Below, piece by piece: positions 1,052-21,909 of a stretch of 64,000 nt of DNA. The translations under genes and the position numbers were made by a program. Where the stretch lies: contig CANQRA010000001.1 in the NCBI GenBank assembly GCA_947626125.1, positions 8,881 to 72,880 of the forward strand, given 5' to 3'. The number at the start of each line of letters is the position of its first letter. The stretch's first letter is position 1. The DNA is from an uncultured Bacilli bacterium. GTDB taxonomy: Bacteria > Bacillota_I > Bacilli_A > RF39 > UBA660. The notes below the pieces were generated by a model that was given only the letters and a program-made list of their open reading frames with translations, was not told the DNA's origin and searched no databases.

Positions 1052-1597
1052 ATGCAAGAGAGAATAACATTTGTTTTAACCTTTAATACTGAAAGTACCA
1101 AAAAAATAAATTCTTATACTAAAAATTGCCAAGAAAATTTATGCAAAGTTCCATTTGGAAAAAATGTTGATAACCGACTAGAAGCTGACACTCTTCCGTA
1201 TCATGTTACTTTATCAGCTTGGAATATCGAAGATGAAGAACGAGTAAATAATGCCTTATCCCAAATTGAATTTCCTAAATTAAAAATACAAATTAATAGT
1301 CTTGGGATAATGAATGGCAAAGAAAACAGTTATGTCTTATACTTCGATGTTGAAAAAAGTGAACAACTAAAATTATTGCAAAGCCAAATATATCAAGTTC
1401 TACCTAGCAAAAATTATAATCCAGAAAATTTTAATTTTCATATAACCATTCATATAGATAAAGATTATAATAAAATACTTGCTATAAAAGAAAAGATATT
1501 AGAGACTTTTAAACCCTTTACCTTAGAAGTTGCGGCTTTTAAATTATATGTAATCTATCCCGCACACTTAATTAATCAATTTAACCCCCATAAATAA
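1052..1597 (+). CDS. 2H phosphoesterase superfamily protein (LigT/YjcG-like 2'-5' RNA ligase / cyclic phosphodiesterase)
   Basis: Two H-x-T/S-x motifs are spaced about 85 aa apart: 'PYHVTLSAW' and 'NFHITIH'. This is the hallmark of 2H phosphoesterases. A -35 TTGACA-like element lies upstream around 971. Confidence 0.55.
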   Translation: MQERITFVLTFNTESTKKINSYTKNCQENLCKVPFGKNVDNRLEADTLPYHVTLSAWNIEDEERVNNALSQIEFPKLKIQINSLGIMNGKENSYVLYFDVEKSEQLKLLQSQIYQVLPSKNYNPENFNFHITIHIDKDYNKILAIKEKILETFKPFTLEVAAFKLYVIYPAHLINQFNPHK

Positions 1598-1621
1598 TTA
1601 TTATAGATAAGAAATATCTTG

Positions 1622-2329
1622 TTATTTTTTCAATGGCTTTTTAACAATTTTATCATAAGGTCGCAAATTTTCCATTAATGTTTTTTTCTTTTTTTGAATA
1701 ACTAAAATATTTCTTAACCCTTCATTTTGATATAAATAAAATGTCTCTTGCTTATGAATTATTCCCCCTAAAATAGCAATAGTATCTGATGCCTCTTTTA
1801 ATTCTTCTTCAACATTTCCTTTAAGAGCAATAAAGTATCCTTCTTCTTTTACTAATGGTAAAGCCAACTCCGAAAGGACTCTTAAATTAGCTACTGCTCT
1901 GGAAGTAACAACATCAAAGGTATTTAAATTATCTTTAGCATATTCTTCTACTCTTTTATTTATAATATTTACTTTAACATCAAGAATTTCGGCTAAATAT
2001 TTTAAAAAGGTTGTCTTTTTATTATTAGAGTCTAATAAATAAACATCAAGATGGGGAAAAAAGATTTTAATAACCATTCCCGGAAATCCAGCACCAGTAC
2101 CTATATCTAGTAAATTATGAACATTATTTAAATCGATGGCTTTTACAATAGTTAAAGAATCATAAAAATGTTTTAAATAAATCCCTTCATCATCTTTAAT
2201 CGCGGTTAAATTCGTATGCTCATTATAATCTTTTAATTCTTGGCGATACTTTTCTAATTTTTCAATCATCTCATCATTAAAAGCAATATTTAATTCTTTT
2301 AAACTAGTTAAAAATTCCTCTTTATTCAT
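1622..2329 (-). CDS. rsmG: 16S rRNA (guanine527-N7)-methyltransferase RsmG (GidB)
   Basis: SAM-binding motif 'LLDIGTGAGFPGMVIKI'. It lies immediately downstream of mnmG with an overlapping stop/start, which is classical oriC-region synteny. Confidence 0.9.
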   Translation of the reverse strand: MNKEEFLTSLKELNIAFNDEMIEKLEKYRQELKDYNEHTNLTAIKDDEGIYLKHFYDSLTIVKAIDLNNVHNLLDIGTGAGFPGMVIKIFFPHLDVYLLDSNNKKTTFLKYLAEILDVKVNIINKRVEEYAKDNLNTFDVVTSRAVANLRVLSELALPLVKEEGYFIALKGNVEEELKEASDTIAILGGIIHKQETFYLYQNEGLRNILVIQKKKKTLMENLRPYDKIVKKPLKK

Positions 2330-4184
2330 TTTTATTATATTCCTTCTTTAAATAAACCGCTAAAATGGAAATATCCACCGGATTTACGCCACTTATTCTT
2401 GAAGCTTGAGCAATAGTTCTTGGTCTTATTTCACTTAGTTTTTGTCTTGCTTCACTAGCTAAGTTTCTAACCTTTTGATAATCTATATCCTCGGGAATTT
2501 CTTTCTCTTCAATCTTTTCTAATTTTTCAGCTTCTTTATAAGCTTTATCAATATATCCTTTATATTTAAGCAATATTTCTACTTGTTCTAAAACATCAGC
2601 ATCATAAGAAAATTCTTTAAAATTCTTTAGAAAAGCAAAATTAATCTCTGGTCTTTTTAATAATTCTTCATAACTGATAGTCTTTTTAGGGATAAGAATA
2701 TCATATTTATTAAAAATCTTTTTAACTTCTTCATTGATAACTAACTTTTCATCTTTTAACTCTTGTTGTAACTTCTTTATATTTTCTTTTTTTTGCAATA
2801 ATCTTTCATGTTGTTCATCACTTATTAAACCTATTTGATAACCATACTCTCTTAATCTTAAATCAGCATTATCATGACGAAGTAACAATCTAAATTCCGC
2901 CCTACTTGTAAGCATCCGATACGGATCTTTTACTCCCTTAGTTACTAAATCATCGATTAAAACACCAATATAAGCTTCATTTCTTTTTAATATTAAACTA
3001 TTTTTACCTTGTATTTTTAAAGATGCATTAATCCCAGCGATTAATCCTTGACTAGCAGCTTCTTCATATCCACTTGTTCCATTAATTTGCCCCGCGGTAA
3101 ATAAATTTTCTAATACTTTATTTTCTAAAGTTGGTTTTATTTGCAAAGCATCAATGGCATCATACTCAATGGCATAAGCATATTTAGATATCACCGCATT
3201 TTCTAATCCTACTAAAGAATGCACCATCTCTTCTTGAACATTAATAGGCATACTAGTAGAAAATCCTTGTAAGTACCATTCATCATAATAAATACTCTCG
3301 GGTTCTAAGAATAATTGATGTCTTGGTTTATCACTAAAACGGACAACTTTATCTTCAATGGAAGGACAATATCTAGGACCGACACCTGTCACATATCCTC
3401 CATACATAGATGATTCTTTTAAATGTTTCCGAATTATTTCATGTGTTAAATCATTAGTATATAATAAATAACATTTTTGTTGTTTATTTATCTCATATTG
3501 AGGTTTAATATCATGACTAAAAGTAAGATATGTATCATCGCCCAATTCTTCTTTTAAAACACTAAAATTAATCGATTCTTTTTTTATTCTGGGTGGTGTT
3601 CCCGTTTTAAGTCTTAGAATATTTAAACCATATTTTTTTAAATTATCACTAAGTAAGTTACTTCTTCCTTCGCCATGTGGTCCTGATGGGATGCTTTCAC
3701 TTCCTCTTAAAACATTAGCCTTTAAATAAGTCCCTGTGGTAAGAATAACTTCTTTACTATATATCTTTTCTTTATTATCTAGGACTACCCCTTCTACTTT
3801 AGAATCATCCACAATTAAATCTTCCACCAAGGCCTCTTTTATTTCTAAATTAGAATTACTTTCTAAATAAGAAAGCATAACTTTAGGATATACTCTTTTA
3901 TCAGCTTGGCATCTTAAACTTCTAACCGCGGGTCCTTTACTATTATTAAGCATTTTAATTTGAAAGTGACTTTTATCAGCCACAATGCCCATTAAACCGC
4001 CTAAAGCATCTATTTCTCTTACGATAACTCCTTTAGCTGTACCCCCAATGGAAGGATTACATGGCATATCGGCAATATTATTTTTATTCATTGTTAAAAG
4101 AAGGGTTTTCATTCCCATTTTAGCACAAGCATAACTAGCTTCACAACCAGCATGCCCTCCCCCAACAACAATAACATCATACAT
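2322..4184 (-). CDS. mnmG: tRNA uridine 5-carboxymethylaminomethyl modification enzyme MnmG (GidA)
   Basis: N-terminal FAD motif 'DVIVVGGGHAGCEA'. Length is 620 aa. It sits between mnmE and rsmG. Confidence 0.95.
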   Translation of the reverse strand: MYDVIVVGGGHAGCEASYACAKMGMKTLLLTMNKNNIADMPCNPSIGGTAKGVIVREIDALGGLMGIVADKSHFQIKMLNNSKGPAVRSLRCQADKRVYPKVMLSYLESNSNLEIKEALVEDLIVDDSKVEGVVLDNKEKIYSKEVILTTGTYLKANVLRGSESIPSGPHGEGRSNLLSDNLKKYGLNILRLKTGTPPRIKKESINFSVLKEELGDDTYLTFSHDIKPQYEINKQQKCYLLYTNDLTHEIIRKHLKESSMYGGYVTGVGPRYCPSIEDKVVRFSDKPRHQLFLEPESIYYDEWYLQGFSTSMPINVQEEMVHSLVGLENAVISKYAYAIEYDAIDALQIKPTLENKVLENLFTAGQINGTSGYEEAASQGLIAGINASLKIQGKNSLILKRNEAYIGVLIDDLVTKGVKDPYRMLTSRAEFRLLLRHDNADLRLREYGYQIGLISDEQHERLLQKKENIKKLQQELKDEKLVINEEVKKIFNKYDILIPKKTISYEELLKRPEINFAFLKNFKEFSYDADVLEQVEILLKYKGYIDKAYKEAEKLEKIEEKEIPEDIDYQKVRNLASEARQKLSEIRPRTIAQASRISGVNPVDISILAVYLKKEYNKNE

Positions 4185-4191
4185 AATATCA

Positions 4192-5529
4192 CTACTTTCC
4201 TAAACAGAAATTACTAAATAAAGTATCAATTAATTCATCTTGATATACTTCTCCCGTAATCTCTCCTAATAAATTCCAGGCATTTTTAATATCAATCAAT
4301 GCCATATCAACAGGCATGGTTTCTAGATTATTCAAAGCTTCTTCTAAACTTTTAAGGGCCTTTTTTAATAAATCAATTTGTCGAACATTAGATAAATAGG
4401 TCATATCTTTATTAATATGTTCTAAGTTTAATTTTTTTATAATTGCTTCTTTTAAACTATCTAATCCCTTATCATCTTTGGTATTACCAACGATATATTC
4501 ACTTTCTAATTTAATATTCATCTTTAAATCTGACTTATTAATAAATATAATTCTTTTCTTTTTGTTAATGCTTTTAATTAAGTTTTCATCTTCCCCACTT
4601 ATTTTCTCATGACCATTTAAAACTAGAATAACTAAATCAGCTTCTTTTAAAACTCTCTTACTTTTTTGAACGCCTATTTTCTCTACTCTATCCGTCGTTT
4701 TTCGAATTCCTGCCGTATCAATAAAGTTAATTAGAAATCCTTGTAAACTAATAGAACCTTCCACAATATCTCTTGTTGTCCCCGCAATGTTGGTTACAAT
4801 AGCTTTTTCTTCATCAAGCAAGCGATTTAATATACTACTTTTTCCGACATTTGGTTTACCTACAATAGCAATATTAATTCCTTCTTTAATCATTCTACTA
4901 TCTTTAGCTGCACCTAACATTGCTTTTAACTTTTCTAATAATTGCTTAATTTTGGGCATTAAAAGGTCTTTCGTAACTACTTCAATATCTTCATATTCTG
5001 GATAATCAATATTAACTTCAATATTTGCAATAATATCCACGATTTCTTTCCTAATATTTCTAATTTTTTGGTTAAGCGTACCTTTTAAATTATTTAAAGC
5101 TAAACTTCGTTGTTTATCGGATGAAGCATTAATTAAATCATTCACGGATTCGGCTTGGGTTAAATCAATTCTCCCATTTAAAAAGGCTCTTTTGGTAAAT
5201 TCACCTGGTTCTGCTAAACGACACCCAGCTTCCAACAATAACTCAAGAATTTTATTGGTTGTATTCACTCCCCCATGCGAATTAATTTCCACAATATCTT
5301 CTTTTGTATATGTTTTAGGAGCTAACATTATATTTACTAATACTTCATCAATTGTTTCTTCTTTATCACATATAAAACCATAATGAATAGTATGACTCTT
5401 CACTTTTTTTAAATCGGGTCCTTTAAATATTTTACTCACAATTTCAATGGCCTCTTTACCAGACACTCTAATAATGGAAATTGCTCCCATACCTGATGCG
5501 GTTGAAATTGCACATATAGTATCTTCCAT
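4192..5529 (-). CDS. mnmE: tRNA modification GTPase MnmE (TrmE)
   Basis: G-domain motifs 'GKPNVGKSS' and 'DTAG', plus a C-terminal 'CLGK'. The ORF track extends to 5583, but the internal Met in 'MEDTICAISTASG' at 5529 matches the conserved MnmE N-terminus and is preceded by a GGGGA Shine-Dalgarno-like sequence. Confidence 0.88.
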   Translation of the reverse strand: MEDTICAISTASGMGAISIIRVSGKEAIEIVSKIFKGPDLKKVKSHTIHYGFICDKEETIDEVLVNIMLAPKTYTKEDIVEINSHGGVNTTNKILELLLEAGCRLAEPGEFTKRAFLNGRIDLTQAESVNDLINASSDKQRSLALNNLKGTLNQKIRNIRKEIVDIIANIEVNIDYPEYEDIEVVTKDLLMPKIKQLLEKLKAMLGAAKDSRMIKEGINIAIVGKPNVGKSSILNRLLDEEKAIVTNIAGTTRDIVEGSISLQGFLINFIDTAGIRKTTDRVEKIGVQKSKRVLKEADLVILVLNGHEKISGEDENLIKSINKKKRIIFINKSDLKMNIKLESEYIVGNTKDDKGLDSLKEAIIKKLNLEHINKDMTYLSNVRQIDLLKKALKSLEEALNNLETMPVDMALIDIKNAWNLLGEITGEVYQDELIDTLFSNFCLGK

Positions 5530-5614
5530 AATATTATCCCCACTTACCGGGTATATAATAGCACAAAAATAAACTTTTTGCATTAAAAAAAGCCCAAAGG
5601 CTCTTTTCTATAGT

Positions 5615-6220
5615 TTATTCTGGTTTAATTACAACATGTCTATTAGGTTCTTCGCCCGTACTTTCTGTTGTAACACCTTTAAAATTAGTTAATACATTAT
5701 GCACAATTCTTCGGTCATAAGCATTCATATTATCTAAATGGGCTTCTACTTTTGTTCTTGCTACATCCTTAGCTACATTCTTAGCTAATCTTTCTAACCT
5801 TCTTTGTTGTTTCTCCCGATAATCTTCGACATCTAACATGACATGAACGCGAATATTAAAATCAGTATTAAGTTTTTGTTTTAAAATTGTTTCTAAGGCT
5901 CTTAAAGTATTACCTTCTCTACCTATTATCACAGGATTATTATCTGAATATATTTTTATCCAGAGCACATTATCTCTTAATTTAGTTTCAAAATTAACAG
6001 TCAAATTCATATTGCCTAATAATTCTTCTAAATATTCTTTAGCATATTGTAATAAGTCTTGCTTTAAATACGCATTAACAACAATGTTATTTTTGCCAAA
6101 TAACCCATTCTTTTTTTCCGTATAATTATAATAGAAATCATCTTTTGTAATATTTAATTCATTACATATACTTTCTAAAATATCCTCTAATAATTTTCCT
6201 TCTTTAGTTATTATTTCCAT
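5615..6220 (-). CDS. jag: Jag/KhpB RNA-binding protein (KH + R3H domains)
   Basis: R3H motif 'IGREGNTLRALETIL'. Its position downstream of yidC (spoIIIJ) is conserved. Confidence 0.85.
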   Translation of the reverse strand: MEIITKEGKLLEDILESICNELNITKDDFYYNYTEKKNGLFGKNNIVVNAYLKQDLLQYAKEYLEELLGNMNLTVNFETKLRDNVLWIKIYSDNNPVIIGREGNTLRALETILKQKLNTDFNIRVHVMLDVEDYREKQQRRLERLAKNVAKDVARTKVEAHLDNMNAYDRRIVHNVLTNFKGVTTESTGEEPNRHVVIKPE

Positions 6221-7247
6221 ACTTAAGACCTCTTTTAACTTCTAATTTATCTTTGATTTTATCTTTTTTATTATTTTTATCTTTATCTTTTCTTTTTTCT
6301 CCCGATAACCTTTTAAATATATAAGTTTGAACGGCGATGAAGGCATAAGTTGTTATCCAGTAAAACGCTAATGCGGTTGATAAAGAGAATGATGTCACCA
6401 CAATCAAAATAACCATAATATTTGTCATCATGCGCATTTGACTTTGCATCTCTTTAGTTTGATTAACGGCATTTGTTTGACTCATTGAATACTTAAAGGA
6501 AAAATATGTTGATAAAGCAATTAAGATAATAAGTAATAAGTAAATATATTTTCCTTGCGATAATCCCACATAAGGGGTCATTCCTAAATTAAAACCTAAT
6601 AAAGAATCTTCAAAGATGGCAGGTACCCGATTAATCGCCGACAAGAAGGCAAAGAAGATTGGCAACTGTAAAAAGGATACTAAACAACCACTCATTGGTT
6701 TCACATCATACTTTTTATATATCGCCATCATCTCTTGACTTTTCATCATCATCGAATCTCGGTCATCACGGCCCCGATATTTAAGTTCCAATTTTTGCAT
6801 ATCTTGTTGCACCTTTTGCATATTTTTGCTTTGCTTCATCGTTTTAAAAGAAAAAGGTAATAATATTAAACGAATAAGTAAACCAATAATGATAAGGGAA
6901 ATACCCATATTACCTATTAAATCGCCTAGCTTTAAGATTAAATAAGCAAGTGGTTTTACAAATAATAATTCCCAAATACCCGAAGCTTTATTAGAATTAA
7001 GTTTAAAATTACTACAAGTTGGTAAATCTTCTAATTTGATTTTTAATTCTTTATTATATTCTTCATAAACTTTATATAATTCGGAATCACTTTCCGGTTT
7101 ACATAAAATATTATTTGGTAAATTTTGTCCTGTTTCTTTATATTGAACAATCTTATTATCACTATCTTTAATGTAATCACTAGCCCCACAGCCACTTGTT
7201 AAGAAAACGACTAAAACTAAAGTTACAACCATCCATCTTTTTTTCAT
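6204..7247 (-). CDS. yidC: membrane protein insertase YidC/SpoIIIJ (lipoprotein type)
   Basis: Lipobox 'FLTSGC' followed by multi-pass TM helices. It sits between rnpA and jag. Confidence 0.9.
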   Translation of the reverse strand: MKKRWMVVTLVLVVFLTSGCGASDYIKDSDNKIVQYKETGQNLPNNILCKPESDSELYKVYEEYNKELKIKLEDLPTCSNFKLNSNKASGIWELLFVKPLAYLILKLGDLIGNMGISLIIIGLLIRLILLPFSFKTMKQSKNMQKVQQDMQKLELKYRGRDDRDSMMMKSQEMMAIYKKYDVKPMSGCLVSFLQLPIFFAFLSAINRVPAIFEDSLLGFNLGMTPYVGLSQGKYIYLLLIILIALSTYFSFKYSMSQTNAVNQTKEMQSQMRMMTNIMVILIVVTSFSLSTALAFYWITTYAFIAVQTYIFKRLSGEKRKDKDKNNKKDKIKDKLEVKRGLKYGNNN

Positions 7248-7793: not shown

Positions 7794-9119
7794 CTACCGA
7801 CTTTTCTTATTTTGTCCTAAAGATTCCTTATTTTCTCTATATTTTTGAATATCTCTATAATATTGATTAATAAGTAAGCTTCTAACATAACCTTTATTTT
7901 GGTAAATGCCCAAATTCTTTTTATCTTGCGGTACACACTTATCTAACATATCTATCCCACAAAATTCTAGGCGCCCGTTACATAAACCTAGAACAGTTGA
8001 ACCGAAACGGTAAAGACAAACAAAATCGTCATTATTCAAGTTACTAATAGCAAAAAATTCTTGAGCAAGGTACATAAACTTATATAAAGGTATCTTTACC
8101 GGAAGTTTTTCTTCTCTTACAATCTCATCAGAAACAATTTCTCCTAACCATATTTCGTATTCTTCTTCCCCAGCAATAATATATTTTACGGGCTTTCCTT
8201 CATATATATAAATATCCATGTATTGGTCAGTTATTAAATTATTTGTGACTACATCTAAAATTTTAGCCGCTAAATCATAATCAGTAAAATCTATTTTATC
8301 TAATAACCGCAGGCTTTCATAGCTGGTACCGTATCCACTACCAGTCAAAAACATTTTCACTTTATCCTTAATTAAACTAAAAATCATACTTATTTGCTTT
8401 TTAAATTTTTCATTATCGGCACTTGCCATCGCAGCATGGTATCTTTCGGTTAAATTATTTGATAATGTACTTATTTCTAAATTATAATTTTTAGCTTCCC
8501 ATTTATGATTAATATCTTCAAATAATTCTTGATAATAAATTGGAAATAAAGGCTTTAAAAGAACTTCTTGAAGTTGTCTTAATTGAATACCATTGTAATC
8601 AAGAGCTTGGGCTTTTGCCATTAATCCTTTATAAAGTGGGTAATTAATTGCCGCGATTTTAAACCTAGCATCTACTGCTTTTTTAAACTGACGAAGATAA
8701 AAAGAATCCATGCTTTCTCTATTGGGATATCTACAATTAGCCTTTATACTTTCCTTAAGTGTTGTATCTTTTAATTTTTCAATATCATCTTTTATAACAT
8801 CATAATAAGGATTATGTTTATATGACTCAACTACTCTGTTAATATCAGCTAAAAAGGTATTATTCCCTCTAAGTCTTTTTAAACTTTCATAAAATTCATT
8901 AATTCCCATATTAGCATTAATTTTAAAAGAGCCATCTGTTCCTATAAAATATTTATCAAAATAATAATTTTTAAAAGTTTTGTACCATAACCTAATTAAA
9001 GCAAAAAATTCATCAAGTATATTTTTTACTTCTGCCTTAGTATTAGCATCATCCACTTTGGTAGGAAAATTAACAATCTCTCCAACAAACACTTTTGCTA
9101 AAGAAGAAAATTCTTTCAA
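7794..9119 (-). CDS. hypothetical protein (441 aa), probably the frameshifted C-terminal portion of the upstream J-domain gene
   Basis: The ORF begins at a TTG with no Shine-Dalgarno sequence and overlaps the 9070..9411 ORF by 50 nt in the +1 frame. Its N-terminus ('VGEIVNFP...EVKNILDEFFALIRLWYKTFKN') aligns with the middle domain of the 9426..10085 paralog ('VGEYLIPS...EIDVIFLEFKNKIASWYEQFKN'). Confidence 0.5.
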   Translation of the reverse strand: MKEFSSLAKVFVGEIVNFPTKVDDANTKAEVKNILDEFFALIRLWYKTFKNYYFDKYFIGTDGSFKINANMGINEFYESLKRLRGNNTFLADINRVVESYKHNPYYDVIKDDIEKLKDTTLKESIKANCRYPNRESMDSFYLRQFKKAVDARFKIAAINYPLYKGLMAKAQALDYNGIQLRQLQEVLLKPLFPIYYQELFEDINHKWEAKNYNLEISTLSNNLTERYHAAMASADNEKFKKQISMIFSLIKDKVKMFLTGSGYGTSYESLRLLDKIDFTDYDLAAKILDVVTNNLITDQYMDIYIYEGKPVKYIIAGEEEYEIWLGEIVSDEIVREEKLPVKIPLYKFMYLAQEFFAISNLNNDDFVCLYRFGSTVLGLCNGRLEFCGIDMLDKCVPQDKKNLGIYQNKGYVRSLLINQYYRDIQKYRENKESLGQNKKSR

Positions 9120-9411
9120 AAATGATTTTTTCCTTTACTACGATTTTATAAGCTTTTAATTCTTCATCGTCAGTACTAGCATTATAAAAATTGTTATCTT
9201 TCTTTCCTTCTTTTAAAGCATTACTTAAAATTTCATATGCCAAATTTATTTTCTTTAATTTTTCGGTTGCTTCCCTTTTTTCTACTTCTGTTTTATTAAT
9301 TAAAGCATCTGGATGATATTTTTTAGCTAAAGCATAATATCTCTTTCGTAATTCACCCTCAGTATAATTATTATTTAGTCCTAATATTTTTAAGGCATCA
9401 CCATGATTCAT
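9070..9411 (-). CDS. J-domain (DnaJ N-terminal domain) protein, truncated; likely the 5' part of a frameshifted gene
   Basis: J-domain with an HPD motif: 'KRYYALAKKYHPDALINKTEVEKREATEKLKKINLAYEILS'. It ends within the A6/T5 homopolymer region at 9118..9131. Confidence 0.6.
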   Translation of the reverse strand: MNHGDALKILGLNNNYTEGELRKRYYALAKKYHPDALINKTEVEKREATEKLKKINLAYEILSNALKEGKKDNNFYNASTDDEELKAYKIVVKEKIIFERIFFFSKSVCWRDC

Positions 9412-9425
9412 TTCTAACCCCTTTG

Positions 9426-10085
9426 TTATAAACTTTTTAATTTTTCAATGCATCGTCTTCTTATTGTATAATTGCAATATGCATGATATCTACTTTTTAA
9501 CTTTGTATAAAATTTTCCAAATGGCTCATCAGCACTAATTTCAAAATTCGTATTTTCCCCCATTGGATGATTGGTAAGGAAAGAATTTTTAAACTGTTCA
9601 TACCAACTTGCTATTTTATTTTTAAATTCTAGAAATATAACATCTATTTCATCAATACTAGTCGCGGTGTTAATTTGGCCAAGATAGAACTTAACTGTAT
9701 CATTATATACATCAATAACTGATTCTAAACCAGGAAAATCATTGAAAATCGCTGCTTCACTTGGTATTAAGTATTCCCCCACAATACTTATTATTTTTTT
9801 CATGTACATTAATAATTCAACATCATTAGCATTGCTATAAGCACCATTGGTGCTGGATGAATTATTACTATTTGTTTTTCCCTCTTTTAAAGCTTTGCTT
9901 AAAACCTCATATGCCAAATTTATTTCCTTTAATTTTTCGCTTGCTTCCTTTTTTTCGGCTTCCGTTTTATTAATTAATGCATCAGGATGATATTGCCTTG
10001 CTAAAGCATAATATTTCTTTCGTAAAATATCTTCCGTGTAATCACTAAATAACCCCATTATTTTTAGAGCTTTATAAAAATTCAT
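9426..10085 (-). CDS. J-domain protein (219 aa): J-domain + low-complexity linker + helical C-terminal domain
   Basis: 'KKYYALARQYHPDALINKTEAEKKEASEKLKEINLAYEVLS' with HPD. It is a paralog of 9070..9411 with about 70% identity across the J-domain. It contains no DnaJ Zn-finger or C-terminal domain. Confidence 0.7.
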   Translation of the reverse strand: MNFYKALKIMGLFSDYTEDILRKKYYALARQYHPDALINKTEAEKKEASEKLKEINLAYEVLSKALKEGKTNSNNSSSTNGAYSNANDVELLMYMKKIISIVGEYLIPSEAAIFNDFPGLESVIDVYNDTVKFYLGQINTATSIDEIDVIFLEFKNKIASWYEQFKNSFLTNHPMGENTNFEISADEPFGKFYTKLKSRYHAYCNYTIRRRCIEKLKSL

Positions 10086-10231
10086 AGTAATCCCCCTTTT
10101 TTATTGTCTGCTATTATATAGCAATATCATCATTTCGTCAAGTAGAGCAAATTAAGGCATAAACTAAAGGTCTTGTTATTAACTATTTTTTGTGTTATAG
10201 TAGTTTTCGCTTTAAAAAAGAGGGGATAATA

Positions 10232-11545
10232 ATGGCTCATTCAATAGCAAATAATAATGATTTAATAATGCTTAATGAATTTATAGATAGCAACTTATCG
10301 GATACCATTGATTATGATTTAGCATTAGAAGAGTTATTAAAACTAAGTCTATTTATTGAAGAAAATTTATTAGCAATTAACCGCTCAACTATATATGATA
10401 TCGTCATGGATAATAGAATTTTAAATAGCATCCTAGAAACTATTGTGCAAAATATTAAAGACTATCAAGACTTAGATACTGTTAGTGCAGATGTTAATGA
10501 TAATGAAATAGCCTTTCTTTTATTAAGAGCTTATTTAATGCAAAATAACTTGATTGCCAAGGAAATGGAAGATTACATAGACCATACAGAAAGTGACTAC
10601 TACCAAACTAATAAAGAATCTAAGTTAGAAAGTATTGAATTAAGTGGAAAAACAGTGCGAAAACTAAGAAAAATGTTATTAACCGATAAAGAAAAAACAA
10701 CCGAATTAATTATTAGATATTATGCTAAAGTTATTGAAAAAAAACTTCCATCTCATGGTAATTATAACGAACTTTATCAAGAGGGATGCCTTGCTATCAT
10801 GGAAGCAATTAATCACTTTTTAAAATCAAATAAATTATTAGCAACGTATATATATGTTGCAATATCAACCTATTTTAGAGACTATAATAACAGGATGAGT
10901 AAGGCATTTGAACCCTTTGATGACATAGATGAAAATGATGTGCCTAATATATTAACGAGCTTAAAAGATGAGCCTTTTGAAGATGTTATTATTAATGAAC
11001 CACCTTTTAAATTAGAGGAATTAGTGCAACAAATTAATATTCCGGATTATAATCGGGAACTTTTGATTTATTATTTTAACAGTGATATAGAAGGTAGTAA
11101 ATTGTATGAACCATATAATACAAGTAGACAAAATTTTTATGCAAGAATAAATCATAGTCTTAGACATTTTCTAAGTGATAAAACCATCATTGAATCAATT
11201 TCTTATTTAGATGACCCCGATAAAGCTCTACAAACTATTAAAGAAAATATTAATGTTGTTGATTTAACCGTAAGTTGGCTCCATCATGATTTTGCTAATA
11301 TTGTAGCACAAGTACCTTTAACAAATTTGGAAAGAGAAATTTTATGTTATTACTATGAGTTAAATGGCTATCAAAGAAAAAATGATATGGAAATGGCTCA
11401 AATGTATGGAATAAATTATTTGAAATTAGCTAGGACAAGAATTAACGCCATGTATAAGATAATAAGTCAAAGGGTCATTCCTTATATGGATTTAGTCCCC
11501 GAATTAGATAAAAAAATAAAAGAATATGGCAAAAGTTATCGCTAA
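10232..11545 (+). CDS. divergent sigma-70 family-like protein (437 aa) with an N-terminal extension and a long insertion between regions 2 and 4
   Basis: Region-2-like segment 'ELYQEGCLAIMEAINHFLKSNKLLATYIYVAISTYFRDY' (compare DLIQEGNIGLMKAVEKF...FSTYATWWIRQAI). Region-4/HTH-like segment 'LTNLEREILCYYYELNGYQRKNDMEMAQMYGINYLKLARTRINAMYKI'. Start is at ATG 10232, preceded by Shine-Dalgarno AGAGGGGA and an extended -10 TGTTATAGT. Confidence 0.45.
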   Translation: MAHSIANNNDLIMLNEFIDSNLSDTIDYDLALEELLKLSLFIEENLLAINRSTIYDIVMDNRILNSILETIVQNIKDYQDLDTVSADVNDNEIAFLLLRAYLMQNNLIAKEMEDYIDHTESDYYQTNKESKLESIELSGKTVRKLRKMLLTDKEKTTELIIRYYAKVIEKKLPSHGNYNELYQEGCLAIMEAINHFLKSNKLLATYIYVAISTYFRDYNNRMSKAFEPFDDIDENDVPNILTSLKDEPFEDVIINEPPFKLEELVQQINIPDYNRELLIYYFNSDIEGSKLYEPYNTSRQNFYARINHSLRHFLSDKTIIESISYLDDPDKALQTIKENINVVDLTVSWLHHDFANIVAQVPLTNLEREILCYYYELNGYQRKNDMEMAQMYGINYLKLARTRINAMYKIISQRVIPYMDLVPELDKKIKEYGKSYR

Positions 11546-11667
11546 AAAGAAGAAAGAAAAAGATATTAATGAAAGAAATAATAGAAGTTCCTTTACTAAA
11601 AACTATTGGCTATATTCACAGTTATAATATACGTTATTTTGACCTAGATAATTTAAAACAAAAGACC

Positions 11668-11909
11668 TTATCCCGTTAATGTGGAAAACTAAGACACTTT
11701 ACGTTGTCTTTTTTTCTTGTCAACAAAGATATTAACATGACTTCTCTTCTTTTATCCTTGTAACAAAACTAAATATTAACTTATCAACACTTTCCACAAA
11801 AATAATTTTGCACAAAAAAGTAATAAGTTAACAAAGTTAATAAAAATTTGTTGAAATTGTGGAAAACATCATGTAATATAGGTTCTATCTAGAAAAAAGA
11901 TGTTGAAAA
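11668..11909. promoter_or_regulatory. DnaA-box cluster upstream of dnaA (oriC left part / dnaA promoter region)
   Basis: Near-consensus 9-mers match TTATCCACA/TGTGGATAA. TGTGGAAAA occurs at 11680..11688 and 11858..11866 (8/9 each). TTATCCCGT 11668..11676, TTATCCTTG 11752..11760, TTATCAACA 11781..11789, TTTCCACAA 11790..11798 and TGTTGAAAA 11901..11909 are 7/9 matches. Confidence 0.6.
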
Positions 11910-12005
11910 CTATGTTAATAACTTTAAAACAAAACTTTTTTCTTGTAATAAAAATACATTTAAGTTAAAATGAAATTGGGATATATATGAAATGTGGGGT
12001 GAGGT

Positions 12006-13373: not shown

Positions 13374-13500
13374 ATGTTGATAAGTAATTAGTTTTCCACA
13401 GACATTTTTTAAGGATATATAAAGGTTAAATAAAGTTTTCCACATTATTAACAGTATAATAAATAATAATAACTAAAATAATAAAAAAAGAAAGAAGGAA
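13374..13500. promoter_or_regulatory. oriC right part: DnaA boxes plus an AT-rich DNA unwinding element between dnaA and dnaN
   Basis: TGTTGATAA at 13374..13382 and TTTTCCACA at 13392..13400 and 13436..13444 are each 8/9 matches. They are followed by a ~55-bp stretch that is more than 90% A+T (13445..13500). Confidence 0.55.
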
Positions 13501-14749: not shown

Positions 14750-15196
14750 ATGCGAAATTACATAATTAAAGATAGTACAATAGCTATTTTAAAGCAAGAA
14801 AAGAAGACAATTATTTATAATGTTGAAAACTTTGTAGTTTTCAACAAAAGTATTAAAAAAATCCTTGATGAAAATTGTATGTTGCATGGGAGTAATTTAA
14901 ATGGCCGCATTAAAAGTGTGCAAAAAATTCTTAATGTTAAGTATCGCGTACCTATTTTAATAAGTGAGAAAGAAAATATTATTCTTCTTCCGATGAATAG
15001 TATGCGTGACAAAGAATGTTTATATATTGTGGCAAATAAAATAATCGATTATACGGAAAATGAGGATTATTTAGAAATCAAATGTATAAATAATCAAATA
15101 TTTAAGACCAAAATATCAAAATATAGTTTTGAAAAAATGATTATAAATATGATGAAATTAAATAATTACTTAAAATGGGAAAATTTTGTAAATTAG
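14750..15196 (+). CDS. ComK-family (competence transcription factor-like) protein, 148 aa
   Basis: Collinear with B. subtilis ComK as I recall it. 'STIAILKQE' aligns with 'ATIAVLPEE'. 'HGSNLNGRIKSVQKILNVKYRVPILISEKENIILLPMNS' aligns with 'FGSSYAGRKAGTYEVTKISHKPPIMVDPSNQIFLFPTLS'. 'KISKYSFEKMIINMMKL' aligns with 'PISYNSFENQVYRTAWL'. An extended -10 TGTTATAGT lies upstream at about 14707. Confidence 0.5.
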   Translation: MRNYIIKDSTIAILKQEKKTIIYNVENFVVFNKSIKKILDENCMLHGSNLNGRIKSVQKILNVKYRVPILISEKENIILLPMNSMRDKECLYIVANKIIDYTENEDYLEIKCINNQIFKTKISKYSFEKMIINMMKLNNYLKWENFVN

Positions 15197-20837: not shown

Positions 20838-21817
20838 TGTCTTTTTTGTTGAAAAATTATTTCCCGGGAAATAATTGGTTTACATAATATTTTTATTTTT
20901 TGCTAAAAGAATAATTTAAAATTTAGACAGTGTCAAAATTCTTTCTCTAATGTTTCACGTGAAACATTAGAGAAAAATTGCTACATAATTTTATATTCTT
21001 TTCTTTTAAAAGTTAAACAATTTATGTATTATGAATTTGGTAAACGTCATTATATTAATATATTTAAATATATCCCTCGAAATAATTGGACTACATAATA
21101 TATAATTTATATCTCTGATAAGTTAACTTTAAAAATATCAATAAATGTTTCATACATTACTGATAAGCCATAATAAAGTAAGTTTAATTTTTTGATATAT
21201 TTAACAAATTTTTACCCGTCGCTTAAACTTATTCGTACTCCATTAATTAGTAACGCTTTATGTTTCACGTGAAACATTAGAGAAAAGCAAATCATTTTTT
21301 AAAATTAACTTTTACAATTTTTTATACGATGTATTCACACATAAACAAAAGCATATTATTAGTATATTATCAATTGTTTAATCCAATAATATGTAATATT
21401 TCCCGGGAAATAATTGGTTTACATAATATTTTATTTGTACATATAATATGTATGTGCTAAACTTTTAGCAAGGCGCATCTCTCCTATATCGAGCTTTTAA
21501 TATAGGTTTGAACGCTCCATATTACAGCACGCGAGATGTTATGTTACTATTTATATTTAAATGTTACTTAAAGCAATGTTTCACGTGAAACATTGCTGGT
21601 GTAAAACATTATTCAAGCATTTAGCATTACTCTTAATTAATTTTAATTATACATAATTATTTATTTAATTCTATGATTTATATTGTATGTTTCACGTGAA
21701 ACTATAAAAATTTTGACACTGTCAAAATTATTTCCCGGGAAATAATTGGTTTACATAATATTTTTGTATTTAAAAAAGTATGTTGAAAAAGTAACTTTTA
21801 TATGTTATTATCTTATT
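20838..21817. repeat. ORF-free ~1-kb region densely populated with three families of repeated palindromic motifs
   Basis: Motif R1 (~38 bp) is 'ATTATTTCCCGGGAAATAATTGGTTTACATAATATTTT' at 20866..20903, 21397..21434 and 21727..21765, with a degenerate copy at 21072..21102. Motif R2 is the palindrome 'TGTTTCACGTGAAACAT' at about 20950, 21260 (both extended to a 26-bp identical repeat), 21575 and 21687. Motif R3 is 'TTTTGACACTGTCAAAATT' or 'GACAGTGTCAAAATT' at 20927 and 21708. The ends of the region show a mirrored order: R1-R3-R2 on the left and R2-R3-R1 on the right. Confidence 0.7.
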
Positions 21818-21895
21818 GCACAACAAATATATCGTAACCTGGTCAGAGTTGGAAAACAGCAGCCACATCGGTCCCTATTTGTGTGTGCTTTTTTT
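21818..21895 (+). ncRNA. ffs: candidate small (4.5S-type) signal recognition particle RNA
   Basis: 'CCUGGUCAGAGUUGGAAAACAGCAGCCACAUCGG' resembles SRP domain IV (GGUCAG..., a GGAA tetraloop closing a GUU/AAC helix, and AGCAGCCA). A terminal stem GCACAACAAATA/TATTTGTGTGTGC closes it, followed by a U-run. Its position just upstream of tadA-dnaX matches the B. subtilis scr neighbourhood. Confidence 0.5.
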
Positions 21896-21909
21896 GAGGA
21901 ACTAAATTT

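Follow-up and report, generated by a model that had tools for sequence, protein, structure and literature searches.

We analysed 64,000 nucleotides (nt) of DNA from an uncultured Bacilli bacterium (GenBank assembly GCA_947626125.1, contig CANQRA010000001.1, positions 8,881 to 72,880 of the forward strand), a stretch referred to below as the window. The gene at positions 10232..11545 of its plus strand (stop codon included) encodes a protein of 437 amino acids (aa) that is a real, extremely diverged member of the sigma-70 family and fits none of the curated groups of sigma factors. By alignment, the protein has an uncommon sigma architecture, in which one standard domain (sigma3) is lost and another (sigma4) is present in two copies, and its ancestry lies in an uncharacterised RpoD-like (group 1/2-type) family of sigma factors from low-GC gut Bacilli. 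The open reading frame (ORF) is a genuine gene: it has a strong ribosome-binding site, a conserved promoter, intact orthologues and a ratio of nonsynonymous to synonymous substitution rates (dN/dS) of about 0.35. A first-pass annotation, made from the letters of the DNA without database searches, had described the product as a highly divergent sigma-70-family protein outside the curated groups. This description is borne out by NCBIfam scores of about 12-21 bits against cut-offs of 43-457, and the region-2 core and C-terminal region-4 helix-turn-helix (HTH) that it pointed out are both present.

That the protein is homologous to the sigma-70 family we regard as close to certain, on the basis of profile comparisons and structural modelling. 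In a protein cluster database of 5.8 billion entries, four cluster representatives were found with E<=1e-3, namely the protein itself and relatives that are 68%, 42% and 42% identical to it (P0001-P0004, with P0001 100% identical to the ORF), and all four align over their full length. The 4-sequence profile of this target clade matches 65 PDB sequences, nearly all from sigma factors, with SigA/RpoD predominating. M. smegmatis SigA is the best match (E=1e-6), in which the sigma2 domain and, separately, sigma4 are covered. When 1.84 billion representatives were searched exhaustively by HMMER, 379 proteins had E<=1e-3, including 22 with E<=1e-10, and the best matches form a graded series, in which P0007, P0008 and P0010 pass the Pfam models of regions 2 and 4 (Sigma70_r2 and Sigma70_r4), whereas P0006 passes region 4 only. 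Nine further proteins, referred to here as the canonical relatives, pass Pfam regions 2 and 4, most of them also region 3 and several region 1.2. For example, P0012, P0016 and P0019 carry regions 1.2, 2, 3 and 4, P0013 and P0015 carry regions 2, 3 and 4, and P0014 has only regions 2 and 4 in its precomputed Pfam list. When the target clade was aligned by hhalign to the nine full-length canonical relatives, the probability of homology was 99.8% (E=7e-30 over 390 columns), and a hidden Markov model (HMM) built from the nine matches the window ORF as three domains, i.e., the N-terminal domain together with sigma2, followed by the sigma4-plus-motif module twice. Structural modelling points in the same direction. 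AlphaFold2 gave a poor model from the 4-sequence alignment (predicted local distance difference test, pLDDT, 50) and an all-helical model with a pLDDT of 76.6 from a 15-sequence alignment. The comparison with sigma-region HMMs and the fold check proposed by the first-pass annotation thus both lead to sigma factors: in Foldseek comparison of the model to the PDB, the best 50 matches are all sigma factors, with probabilities mostly of 0.8-1.0, and include SigA, SigS, WhiG, FliA, SigB, sigma32 and sigma70. The named Foldseek matches among the viral models of BFVD are likewise nearly all sigma factors; PHROGs gave a marginal sigma match only.

The best-conserved part of the protein is a helical domain at its N-terminus (aa 8-115; 10253..10576, plus strand), which was delimited by the family alignment and is 61% identical between the two sub-clades of the target clade. 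The domain has a net charge of -16 and a pI of 4.1, its charge stays between -14 and -17 across the target clade, and the block-mean pLDDT of the model here is 73-92. The first-pass annotation had treated this part as an extension; it is instead a conserved domain and a hallmark of a larger uncharacterised RpoD-like family of at least 50 clusters. The target contains the family pattern N..I..NL.D...Y..AL..L.KL..F.E ... N..LN..L..IV ... Y.M.N.I. Among the 150 best cluster representatives, at least 51 match the N-terminal domain and sigma2 jointly, over profile positions ~10 to ~220 and typically at their own residues ~90-310, and two more match the N-terminal domain alone. In the canonical relatives, the domain stands before a Pfam-verified region 1.2. 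It has no Pfam match and no sequence relative among PDB structures. Its identification with region 1.1 was rejected, as hhalign gave a probability of 0.1% and the resemblance is limited to position and acidity. Word-indexed protein searches with the 15-sequence alignment added little, and those with the alignment of the N-terminal domain alone added nothing.

Between this domain and sigma2 lies a degenerate segment in the position of region 1.2 (aa ~128-150, 'KESKLESIELSGKTVRKLRKMLL'; 10613..10681, plus strand), which aligns to the Pfam-verified region 1.2 of the canonical relatives; the model has low confidence at aa 117-134. A PDB profile search aligned a different stretch, 'LLRAYLMQNN' (aa 97-106), to region 1.2 of SigA. 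This assignment was rejected: the stretch is the last helix of the N-terminal domain, and the canonical relatives have both that helix and a separate Pfam-verified region 1.2. The sigma2 domain (aa ~151-225, regions 2.1-2.4; 10682..10906, plus strand) is supported by Pfam, NCBIfam, a residue-level alignment to SigA, the family alignment and hhalign. Its core-binding helix 'ELYQEGCLAIMEAINHF' is kept and aligns with 'DLIQEGNLGLIRAVEKF' of SigA, while 'KLLATYIYVAISTYFRD' aligns with 'YKFSTYATWWIRQAITR' of SigA, and Gln-Glu-Gly is retained. No variation is seen in the clade at L181, Y182, Q183, E184, C186, A188 and F196, which align with 'DLIQEGNxGLxxAxxKF' of SigA. Also kept is the Tyr aligned to the conserved Tyr of SigA 'FSTYATWW', which is at least 90% conserved across 15 family members. 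In E. coli sigma70, the residues corresponding to those of SigA serve to bind the core of RNA polymerase, to melt the -10 element and to recognise position -12. In all sigma-70 members, the principal determinants for RNA polymerase and promoter lie in sigma2 and sigma4, sigma3 is variably present, and the bases A-11 and T-7 are flipped into pockets of sigma2 (PMC4598750).

Downstream of sigma2, the protein departs from the standard layout. About 53 aa that are present in P0006-P0010 and in all canonical relatives, comprising the end of region 2.4, region 3.0 and region 3.1, are missing in the target exactly between region 2.4 and the linker, and the junction was placed at 10895..10900 (plus strand) by MAFFT and hhalign. 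The hhalign comparison of the target clade to the intermediates is collinear, with one large gap at sigma3, and the intermediates are in turn collinear with the canonical relatives through sigma3. By these alignments, sigma3 is deleted, and only in the small clade P0001-P0004. The equivalent of the region 3.2 linker follows, an acidic segment with a net charge of -10 and a conserved 'LTSL..E.FE' motif (aa 226-262; 10907..11017, plus strand). The first-pass annotation had assumed a long insertion in place of region 3; region 3 is indeed absent, yet through plain deletion, with no foreign sequence inserted. Nor is the sequence between its two sigma-like segments unrelated, as had been supposed: in addition to the linker, it holds a degenerate sigma4 in the ancestral position and a motif that follows sigma4 in the family. 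The two segments are ~145 aa apart and preceded by ~180 aa, compared to the ~170 and ~160 aa given earlier.

The degenerate copy, sigma4a (aa ~263-322; 11018..11197, plus strand), was recognised by its alignment to P0006 and by hhalign. It aligns to residues 322-369 of P0006, which score E=1.8e-9 on Pfam Sigma70_r4, and its hhalign comparison to the canonical sigma4-plus-motif module has a probability of 93.9% (E=1.6e-7). HMMER reports it as a separate domain match to the same profile region, with an independent E-value (i-E) of 0.074 for the window and 1e-4 for the orthologues on contigs L001 and L005; the best PDB sequence match of the sigma4a profile is a weak one to a UPF0122 HTH protein (E=0.012). 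Next comes the post-sigma4 motif 'YLDDPDKALQTIKEN' (Y-x-D-x-P; aa 323-345; 11198..11266, plus strand), seen in the clade and family alignments, in which Y325, L326, D328, P329, D330 and A332 are invariant in the clade (YLDDPDKA, aa 325-332); a Y-x-D-x-P-x-x-A motif stands immediately C-terminal to sigma4 in most of the aligned canonical relatives. The second and better-preserved copy, sigma4b (aa ~346-415; 11267..11476, plus strand), was identified by profile search, hhalign, HMMER and the model. Its profile matches sigma4 of SigA in the PDB with E=3e-5, its comparison to sigma4 of the canonical relatives has an hhalign probability of 98.7% (E=4.5e-16) and a HMMER i-E of 7e-11, and its pLDDT is 87-93. 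In the C-terminal tail 'IPYMDLVPELDKKIKEYG' (11477..11542, plus strand), hhalign aligns a second, degenerate copy of the Y-x-D-x-P motif, 'PYMDLVP', with the canonical post-sigma4 motif. The C-terminal HTH is thus, by alignment, a tandem duplicate of the sigma4-plus-motif module. The HTH called by the first-pass annotation is a real sigma4, although it is the extra copy, the ancestral one being sigma4a. In the family alignment, a sigma4b of this kind is recognisable only in P0001-P0004 and P0006.

The family to which the protein belongs is marked by a helical N-terminal domain of ~105 aa before region 1.2, by Y-x-D-x-P after sigma4 and, often, by C-terminal extensions with sigma4-like repeats. 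Two Sigma70_r4 stretches are present in P0013 and in P0035, and extra weak r4-like matches occur in the C-terminal extensions of P0051 and P0106; therefore, sigma4-like repeats recur in the family. The C-terminal HTH of the target also led to P0009, a metagenomic protein of 589 aa that consists almost wholly of seven tandem Sigma70_r4 repeats (Pfam E=3.8e-57). The best NCBIfam matches of the canonical relatives are RpoD models, or RpoS in the case of P0016, with 241-316 bits on the Firmicutes RpoD model PRK09210 (cut-off 572), and they are found in ordinary chromosomal neighbourhoods without an adjacent dnaG. They look like accessory RpoD-like paralogues. P0019, P0012, P0023 and P0016 score 213-278 bits on the NCBIfam model of MzaA, the sigma-like protein of the anti-phage MZA system (cut-off 800), and on the MzaA model of PADLOC P0019 reaches 173 bits, the match starting at residue 25, inside the N-terminal domain. 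These scores probably reflect general RpoD-likeness; that the N-terminal domain is related to the middle part of MzaA is conceivable but less probable.

The order of the changes can be read from P0006. This protein shares the downstream genes adh_short and Met_gamma_lyase with P0003 and P0004, which suggests that it is their orthologue in related rabbit-gut metagenome-assembled genomes labelled 'uncultured Bacilli bacterium'. P0006 has sigma3 together with both sigma4 copies, whereas P0003 and P0004 are without sigma3, and the Trp dyad of region 2.3 is already lost in P0006-P0010. We infer from this that loss of the dyad and duplication of sigma4 probably came first and deletion of sigma3 last.

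Intact orthologues were found on at least five other contigs (L004, L001, L002/L003, L005 and L006), and the syntenic P0006 is on contig L008. The orthologous ORFs, of 437-446 aa, stay intact across lineages at 42% identity. The dN/dS ratio, calculated by the Nei-Gojobori method, is 0.35 for the window compared to L004, 0.33 for P0003 compared to P0004 and 0.41 between the sub-clades. It is well under 1 in nearly every segment, with the minimum of 0.15 in the N-terminal 115 aa, and amounts to 0.12-0.31 in sigma2. The protein is therefore under purifying, though relaxed, selection. We found no match to the gene by tblastn against phage and plasmid collections and no relatives in IMG/VR and JGI metagenome scans with the clade alignment; a mobile or viral origin was rejected, given that the phage, plasmid and IMG/VR collections were without a match.

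We consider it somewhat better than an even chance, judging from conserved residues and domain order, that the fast-evolving protein is a functional alternative sigma factor, i.e., a true promoter-specificity factor. Such a factor would be made from a promoter of the sigmaA type with an extended -10 element and would bind core RNA polymerase via the conserved region 2.2 helix of sigma2. In known sigma factors, this helix contacts the clamp helices of the beta-prime subunit. One of the two sigma4 domains may then bind the beta flap across the linker of ~37 aa, a spacing like that of extracytoplasmic function (ECF) sigma factors, and the protein would act as a sigma with a two-domain, ECF-like geometry and a promoter specificity other than that of sigmaA. 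The acidic N-terminal domain and the second sigma4 could be regulatory, either auto-inhibitory or partner-binding; alternatively, the second sigma4 might read an extra upstream element. A bolder version, which we put forward as speculative, is that the protein and its few relatives represent a new architectural class of sigma-70 factors, which had an RpoD-like ancestor and arose when sigma3 was lost and sigma4 duplicated in tandem. In this class, one sigma4 would sit on the beta flap, the other would read an upstream element or act as a built-in anti-sigma, and the N-terminal domain, a new fold family, would switch access to RNA polymerase.

It should be noted that a number of observations weigh against a functional sigma factor. 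Some of them concern recognition of the family. Alone, the protein matches Pfam Sigma70_r2 below the gathering score (E=0.0011; 19.2 bits against 24), and it has no match to Sigma70_r1_1, r1_2 or r3 nor, at E up to 1, to r4. The NCBIfam scores quoted above fall on FliA/WhiG (20.9 bits against a cut-off of 189.6), SigG (18.9 against 457), SigF (16.5 against 321), SigK, ShbA and the generic ECF model; no RpoD model is among the NCBIfam matches at E up to 1, and single-sequence phmmer gave no match in the PDB. The E-values of the Foldseek matches are weak (6e-3 to 0.1), and the predicted template modelling score (pTM) of the model is only 0.40, which makes the domain packing unreliable. Others concern function. 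Val-Ala takes the place of the Trp-Trp dyad of SigA, Thr and Arg stand where SigA has the -12 readers Gln and Thr, and what aligns to region 1.2 is degenerate. Within the clade, neither sigma4 copy has a constant recognition helix, and dN/dS of sigma4b is 0.5, which is odd for a fixed -35 specificity. Finally, we found neither a conserved operon partner nor a regulon or an autoregulatory promoter.

The first-pass annotation had named a novel sigma, an anti-sigma-like decoy and a sigma-derived DNA-binding regulator as options. Many of these features would also suit a modulator or decoy that docks on RNA polymerase via sigma2, and possibly one sigma4, without opening promoters, thereby competing with sigma factors or holding polymerase in reserve. 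The helix that binds the core is conserved, in contrast to the Trp dyad and the -12 readers, which are lost, and to the degenerate region 1.2; sigma3 is deleted; the HTH recognition helices are variable; the strongly acidic N-terminal domain and linker could mimic DNA; and it is the N-terminal domain, not the DNA-reading parts, that is most constrained. However, group 4 sigma factors, which are likewise without sigma3, region 1.2 and the Trp dyad, are still true sigma factors (PMC4598750 and general knowledge), the Tyr aligned to that of SigA 'FSTYATWW' is retained, and both sigma4 folds are kept with high model confidence, so that we hold a decoy to be rather unlikely. Less likely again is a free-standing DNA-binding regulator that would act independently of RNA polymerase, with the tandem sigma4 HTHs on paired DNA sites as a pseudo-dimer and with sigma2 and the N-terminal domain reused for signalling or oligomerisation. 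Such a regulator would account for two sigma4-plus-motif modules in tandem, and proteins made of sigma4 repeats only do exist in the same sequence space (P0009, with 7 Sigma70_r4 repeats); the best PDB sequence match of sigma4a is a stand-alone HTH protein, UPF0122. Yet it leaves the purifying selection on sigma2 with its core-binding helix (dN/dS 0.12-0.31) poorly accounted for, the recognition helices have few conserved basic residues, and the whole protein is collinear with complete sigma factors.

Three further readings have a far lower standing. A decaying, functionless RpoD-like paralogue that has not yet acquired stop codons would be extremely diverged, and it would be in keeping with the great rarity of the clade (4 clusters in a database of 5.8 billion entries), with selection relaxed compared to housekeeping genes (dN/dS ~0.35), with the deletion of one domain and with decaying neighbours (a 36-codon remnant and a frameshifted J-domain gene). 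We find this very improbable given intact ORFs of 437-446 aa across lineages at only 42% identity and in a genome of 27% GC, where stops arise easily, dN/dS well under 1 nearly throughout (0.15 in the N-terminal domain), and conservation of the ribosome-binding site and promoter. Hardly conceivable is a very diverged primary housekeeping sigma of the organism, in spite of nearest recognisable relatives that are RpoD-like and of the finding that the HMM of the nine canonical relatives detects no second sigma gene within 64 kb, which is all of the genome that was in view. The protein is without sigma3, the Trp dyad and a recognisable region 1.2 and scores far under the RpoD equivalog cut-offs; there is no dnaG-sigA arrangement and the position of the gene varies between genomes; essential sigma factors usually have a dN/dS far below 0.35; and the conserved sigmaA-type promoter before the gene implies that a normal SigA exists. 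As remote is a sigma-like component of an anti-phage defence system or mobile element, such as an MzaA-like protein or a regulator of an integrative and conjugative element. This was suggested by the scores of canonical relatives on MzaA models (P0019: 173 bits in PADLOC, 255 bits in NCBIfam), by a VirD4/TraG-like gene 2.2 kb upstream in L001 and by the lineage-specific segment between rpmH and oriC. Against it, the target itself has no MzaA match in PADLOC, the NCBIfam cut-off for MzaA is 800 bits, none of the contexts examined contains Mza partner genes, phage, plasmid and IMG/VR searches gave no match, and the P0006 locus lacks a VirD4-like gene.

Compared to known sigma types, the protein is closest by descent to SigA/RpoD, whose chains are the best solved-structure matches of the clade profile. 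It keeps the region 2.2 core-binding helix and the Tyr of 'FSTYATWW', and it has an acidic N-terminal domain where group 1 sigma factors have region 1.1. It differs from SigA/RpoD in the absence of sigma3, in the degenerate region 1.2, in the replacement of the Trp dyad and -12 readers, in an N-terminal domain unrelated in sequence to region 1.1 and in the second sigma4 module; it is far below every RpoD cut-off, and the neighbouring genes are J-domain genes and dnaA, Coat_F or adh_short, not those of a dnaG-sigA arrangement. It thus lacks region 1.1 and sigma3 as defining features of groups 1-3 and stays below their curated scores. Group 4 (ECF) sigma factors have only sigma2 and sigma4. The target resembles them in its layout, in which sigma2 is joined to sigma4 by a linker of ~37 aa and neither sigma3 nor a working region 1.2 is present. 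No sigma-70 group is smaller than group 4 (~20 kDa), and sigma3 is variably present in alternative sigma factors (PMC4598750). Furthermore, the extra sequence after sigma4 could regulate activity, as in ECF41 sigma factors with their fused C-terminal regulatory domain (PMC3426412), and in L004 the gene of a membrane-anchored protein overlaps the stop codon of the sigma gene, as anti-sigma genes often do. Nevertheless, the protein is not an ECF sigma by descent: its score on TIGR02937, the generic ECF model, is 15.1 bits (cut-off 42.9), its relatives are RpoD-like, its sigma3-less state comes from recent deletion, it has a large N-terminal domain, its C-terminal addition is another sigma4 instead of a SnoaL-like or similar domain, and the window has lost the membrane-protein gene, which the other clade does not have either. 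UPF0122 (PDB 1xsv and 1s7o) is the best solved-structure match of the sigma4a profile over the HTH (E=0.012); the match is weak, however, and sigma4a is embedded in a full sigma-like protein as the positional equivalent of the canonical sigma4. Unlike MzaA, the target has no MzaA match, its relatives reach 213-278 bits against the required 800, and Mza partner genes are lacking at every locus.

These comparisons suggest that an ECF-like layout of sigma2, linker and sigma4 can arise late, by deletion, inside an RpoD-like lineage, because the syntenic P0006 keeps sigma3 and P0003/P0004 in the same neighbourhood do not; this would add a second way of reaching a two-domain sigma. The clusters that share the N-terminal domain, at least 50 in number at 50% identity, represent an undescribed RpoD-like sigma family of low-GC, mostly gut-metagenome bacteria. 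Pfam and NCBIfam have no model for the family-specific parts, and the most diverged members carry neither a precomputed Pfam domain nor a source-given name; in the literature we found no description of the N-terminal domain family or of sigma factors with two sigma4 domains, which is weak negative evidence. A sigma with two sigma4 domains also makes it possible to study which of them binds the beta flap and what role is left to the other. The practical impact is modest for now, as the organisms are uncultured and the position next to oriC/dnaA is limited to two close genomes.

The ORF runs for 437 codons on the plus strand from the ATG at 10232 to the stop codon at 11543-11545. A ribosome-binding site, GAGGGG (10220..10225, plus strand), was read in the sequence 6 nt 5' of this ATG. 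A longer version starting at a TTG at 10190 was dropped, because the homologues begin at the Met equivalent to ATG 10232. Upstream, a consensus scan and inspection of the sequence revealed a promoter-like site of the sigmaA type, TTGTTA-17 nt-TATAGT, with TGTG directly upstream of the latter hexamer (extended -10; 10173..10201, plus strand). The pattern TTGT(T/A)(A/T)-N17-TGTGTTATAGT is common to the regions 5' of the gene in the window, L004, L001 and L002, and the upstream region in L008 has a close variant, TTGTAC-N17-TGTGCTAAAAT. We read the conserved element as a sigmaA-type extended -10 promoter, from which the housekeeping holoenzyme probably transcribes the gene. A distinctive promoter for autoregulation was considered and rejected, since the conserved upstream motif is sigmaA-like.

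The window represents the replication-origin region of a chromosome with ~27-28% GC, where GC skew changes sign at ~10 kb. On the left side, mnmG, mnmE, jag, yidC, rnpA (by Pfam) and rpmH are encoded on the minus strand, and on the right side, dnaA and dnaN (both verified), a ComK-family gene, recF, gyrB and gyrA on the plus strand. The interval between rpmH and dnaA contains a lineage-specific segment of ~3.9 kb with a 441-aa ORF and two J-domain ORFs (minus strand) and the sigma-like gene (plus strand). As context, DnaA-box-like 9-mers with one mismatch each are present at 11680, 11781 and 11858 (11680..11866), in the part of oriC upstream of dnaA, and three more lie between dnaA and dnaN (13375-13444). 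The non-coding block 11572-11980 is 92.7% identical to L004, compared to 78% nucleotide identity for the coding sequence of the sigma-like gene, and there is no terminator-like site between that gene and the block. In L004, an intact gene (1485-2594) encodes a 369-aa N-terminally membrane-anchored protein without a family match, and its start overlaps the stop codon of the sigma gene (ATGA). By comparison with L004, the window lacks ~990 bp of this gene, of which the last 36 codons remain (11569..11679, plus strand), and the gene is missing from the other clade. The sigma-like gene adjoins dnaA/oriC only in two close genomes, those of the window and L004; in the other contexts its neighbour is Coat_F or adh_short. 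We rejected a conserved functional link to dnaA/oriC, as the gene has another position in the 42%-identity clade and for P0006, and also a conserved partner gene, as no neighbouring protein is common to both contexts.

With PADLOC, neither the target nor any of its neighbours was assigned to a defence system. In L001, the region upstream of the sigma-like gene (1364-6489) contains genes for a 685-aa SpoIID-domain protein and a 749-aa VirD4/TraG-like coupling protein, which hint at a remnant of a conjugative element; the P0006 locus has no such region. On the minus strand of the window, the 113-aa J-domain ORF (9070-9411) and the 441-aa ORF (7794-9119) overlap by 50 nt in different frames near an A6/T5 run (~9120-9135), and the 441-aa ORF shares 31% identity at its N-terminus with the C-terminal part of the J-domain protein next to it (9426-10085). 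The pair (7794-9411) looks like a single J-domain gene that was frameshifted and whose shorter paralogue is this neighbour. The ComK-family ORF between dnaN and recF (14750-15196, plus strand) has a Pfam ComK match with E=3.6e-19. A small signal recognition particle RNA at 21809-21904 (plus strand; Rfam RF00169, 52.7 bits) is the sole gathering-level Rfam match in the window.

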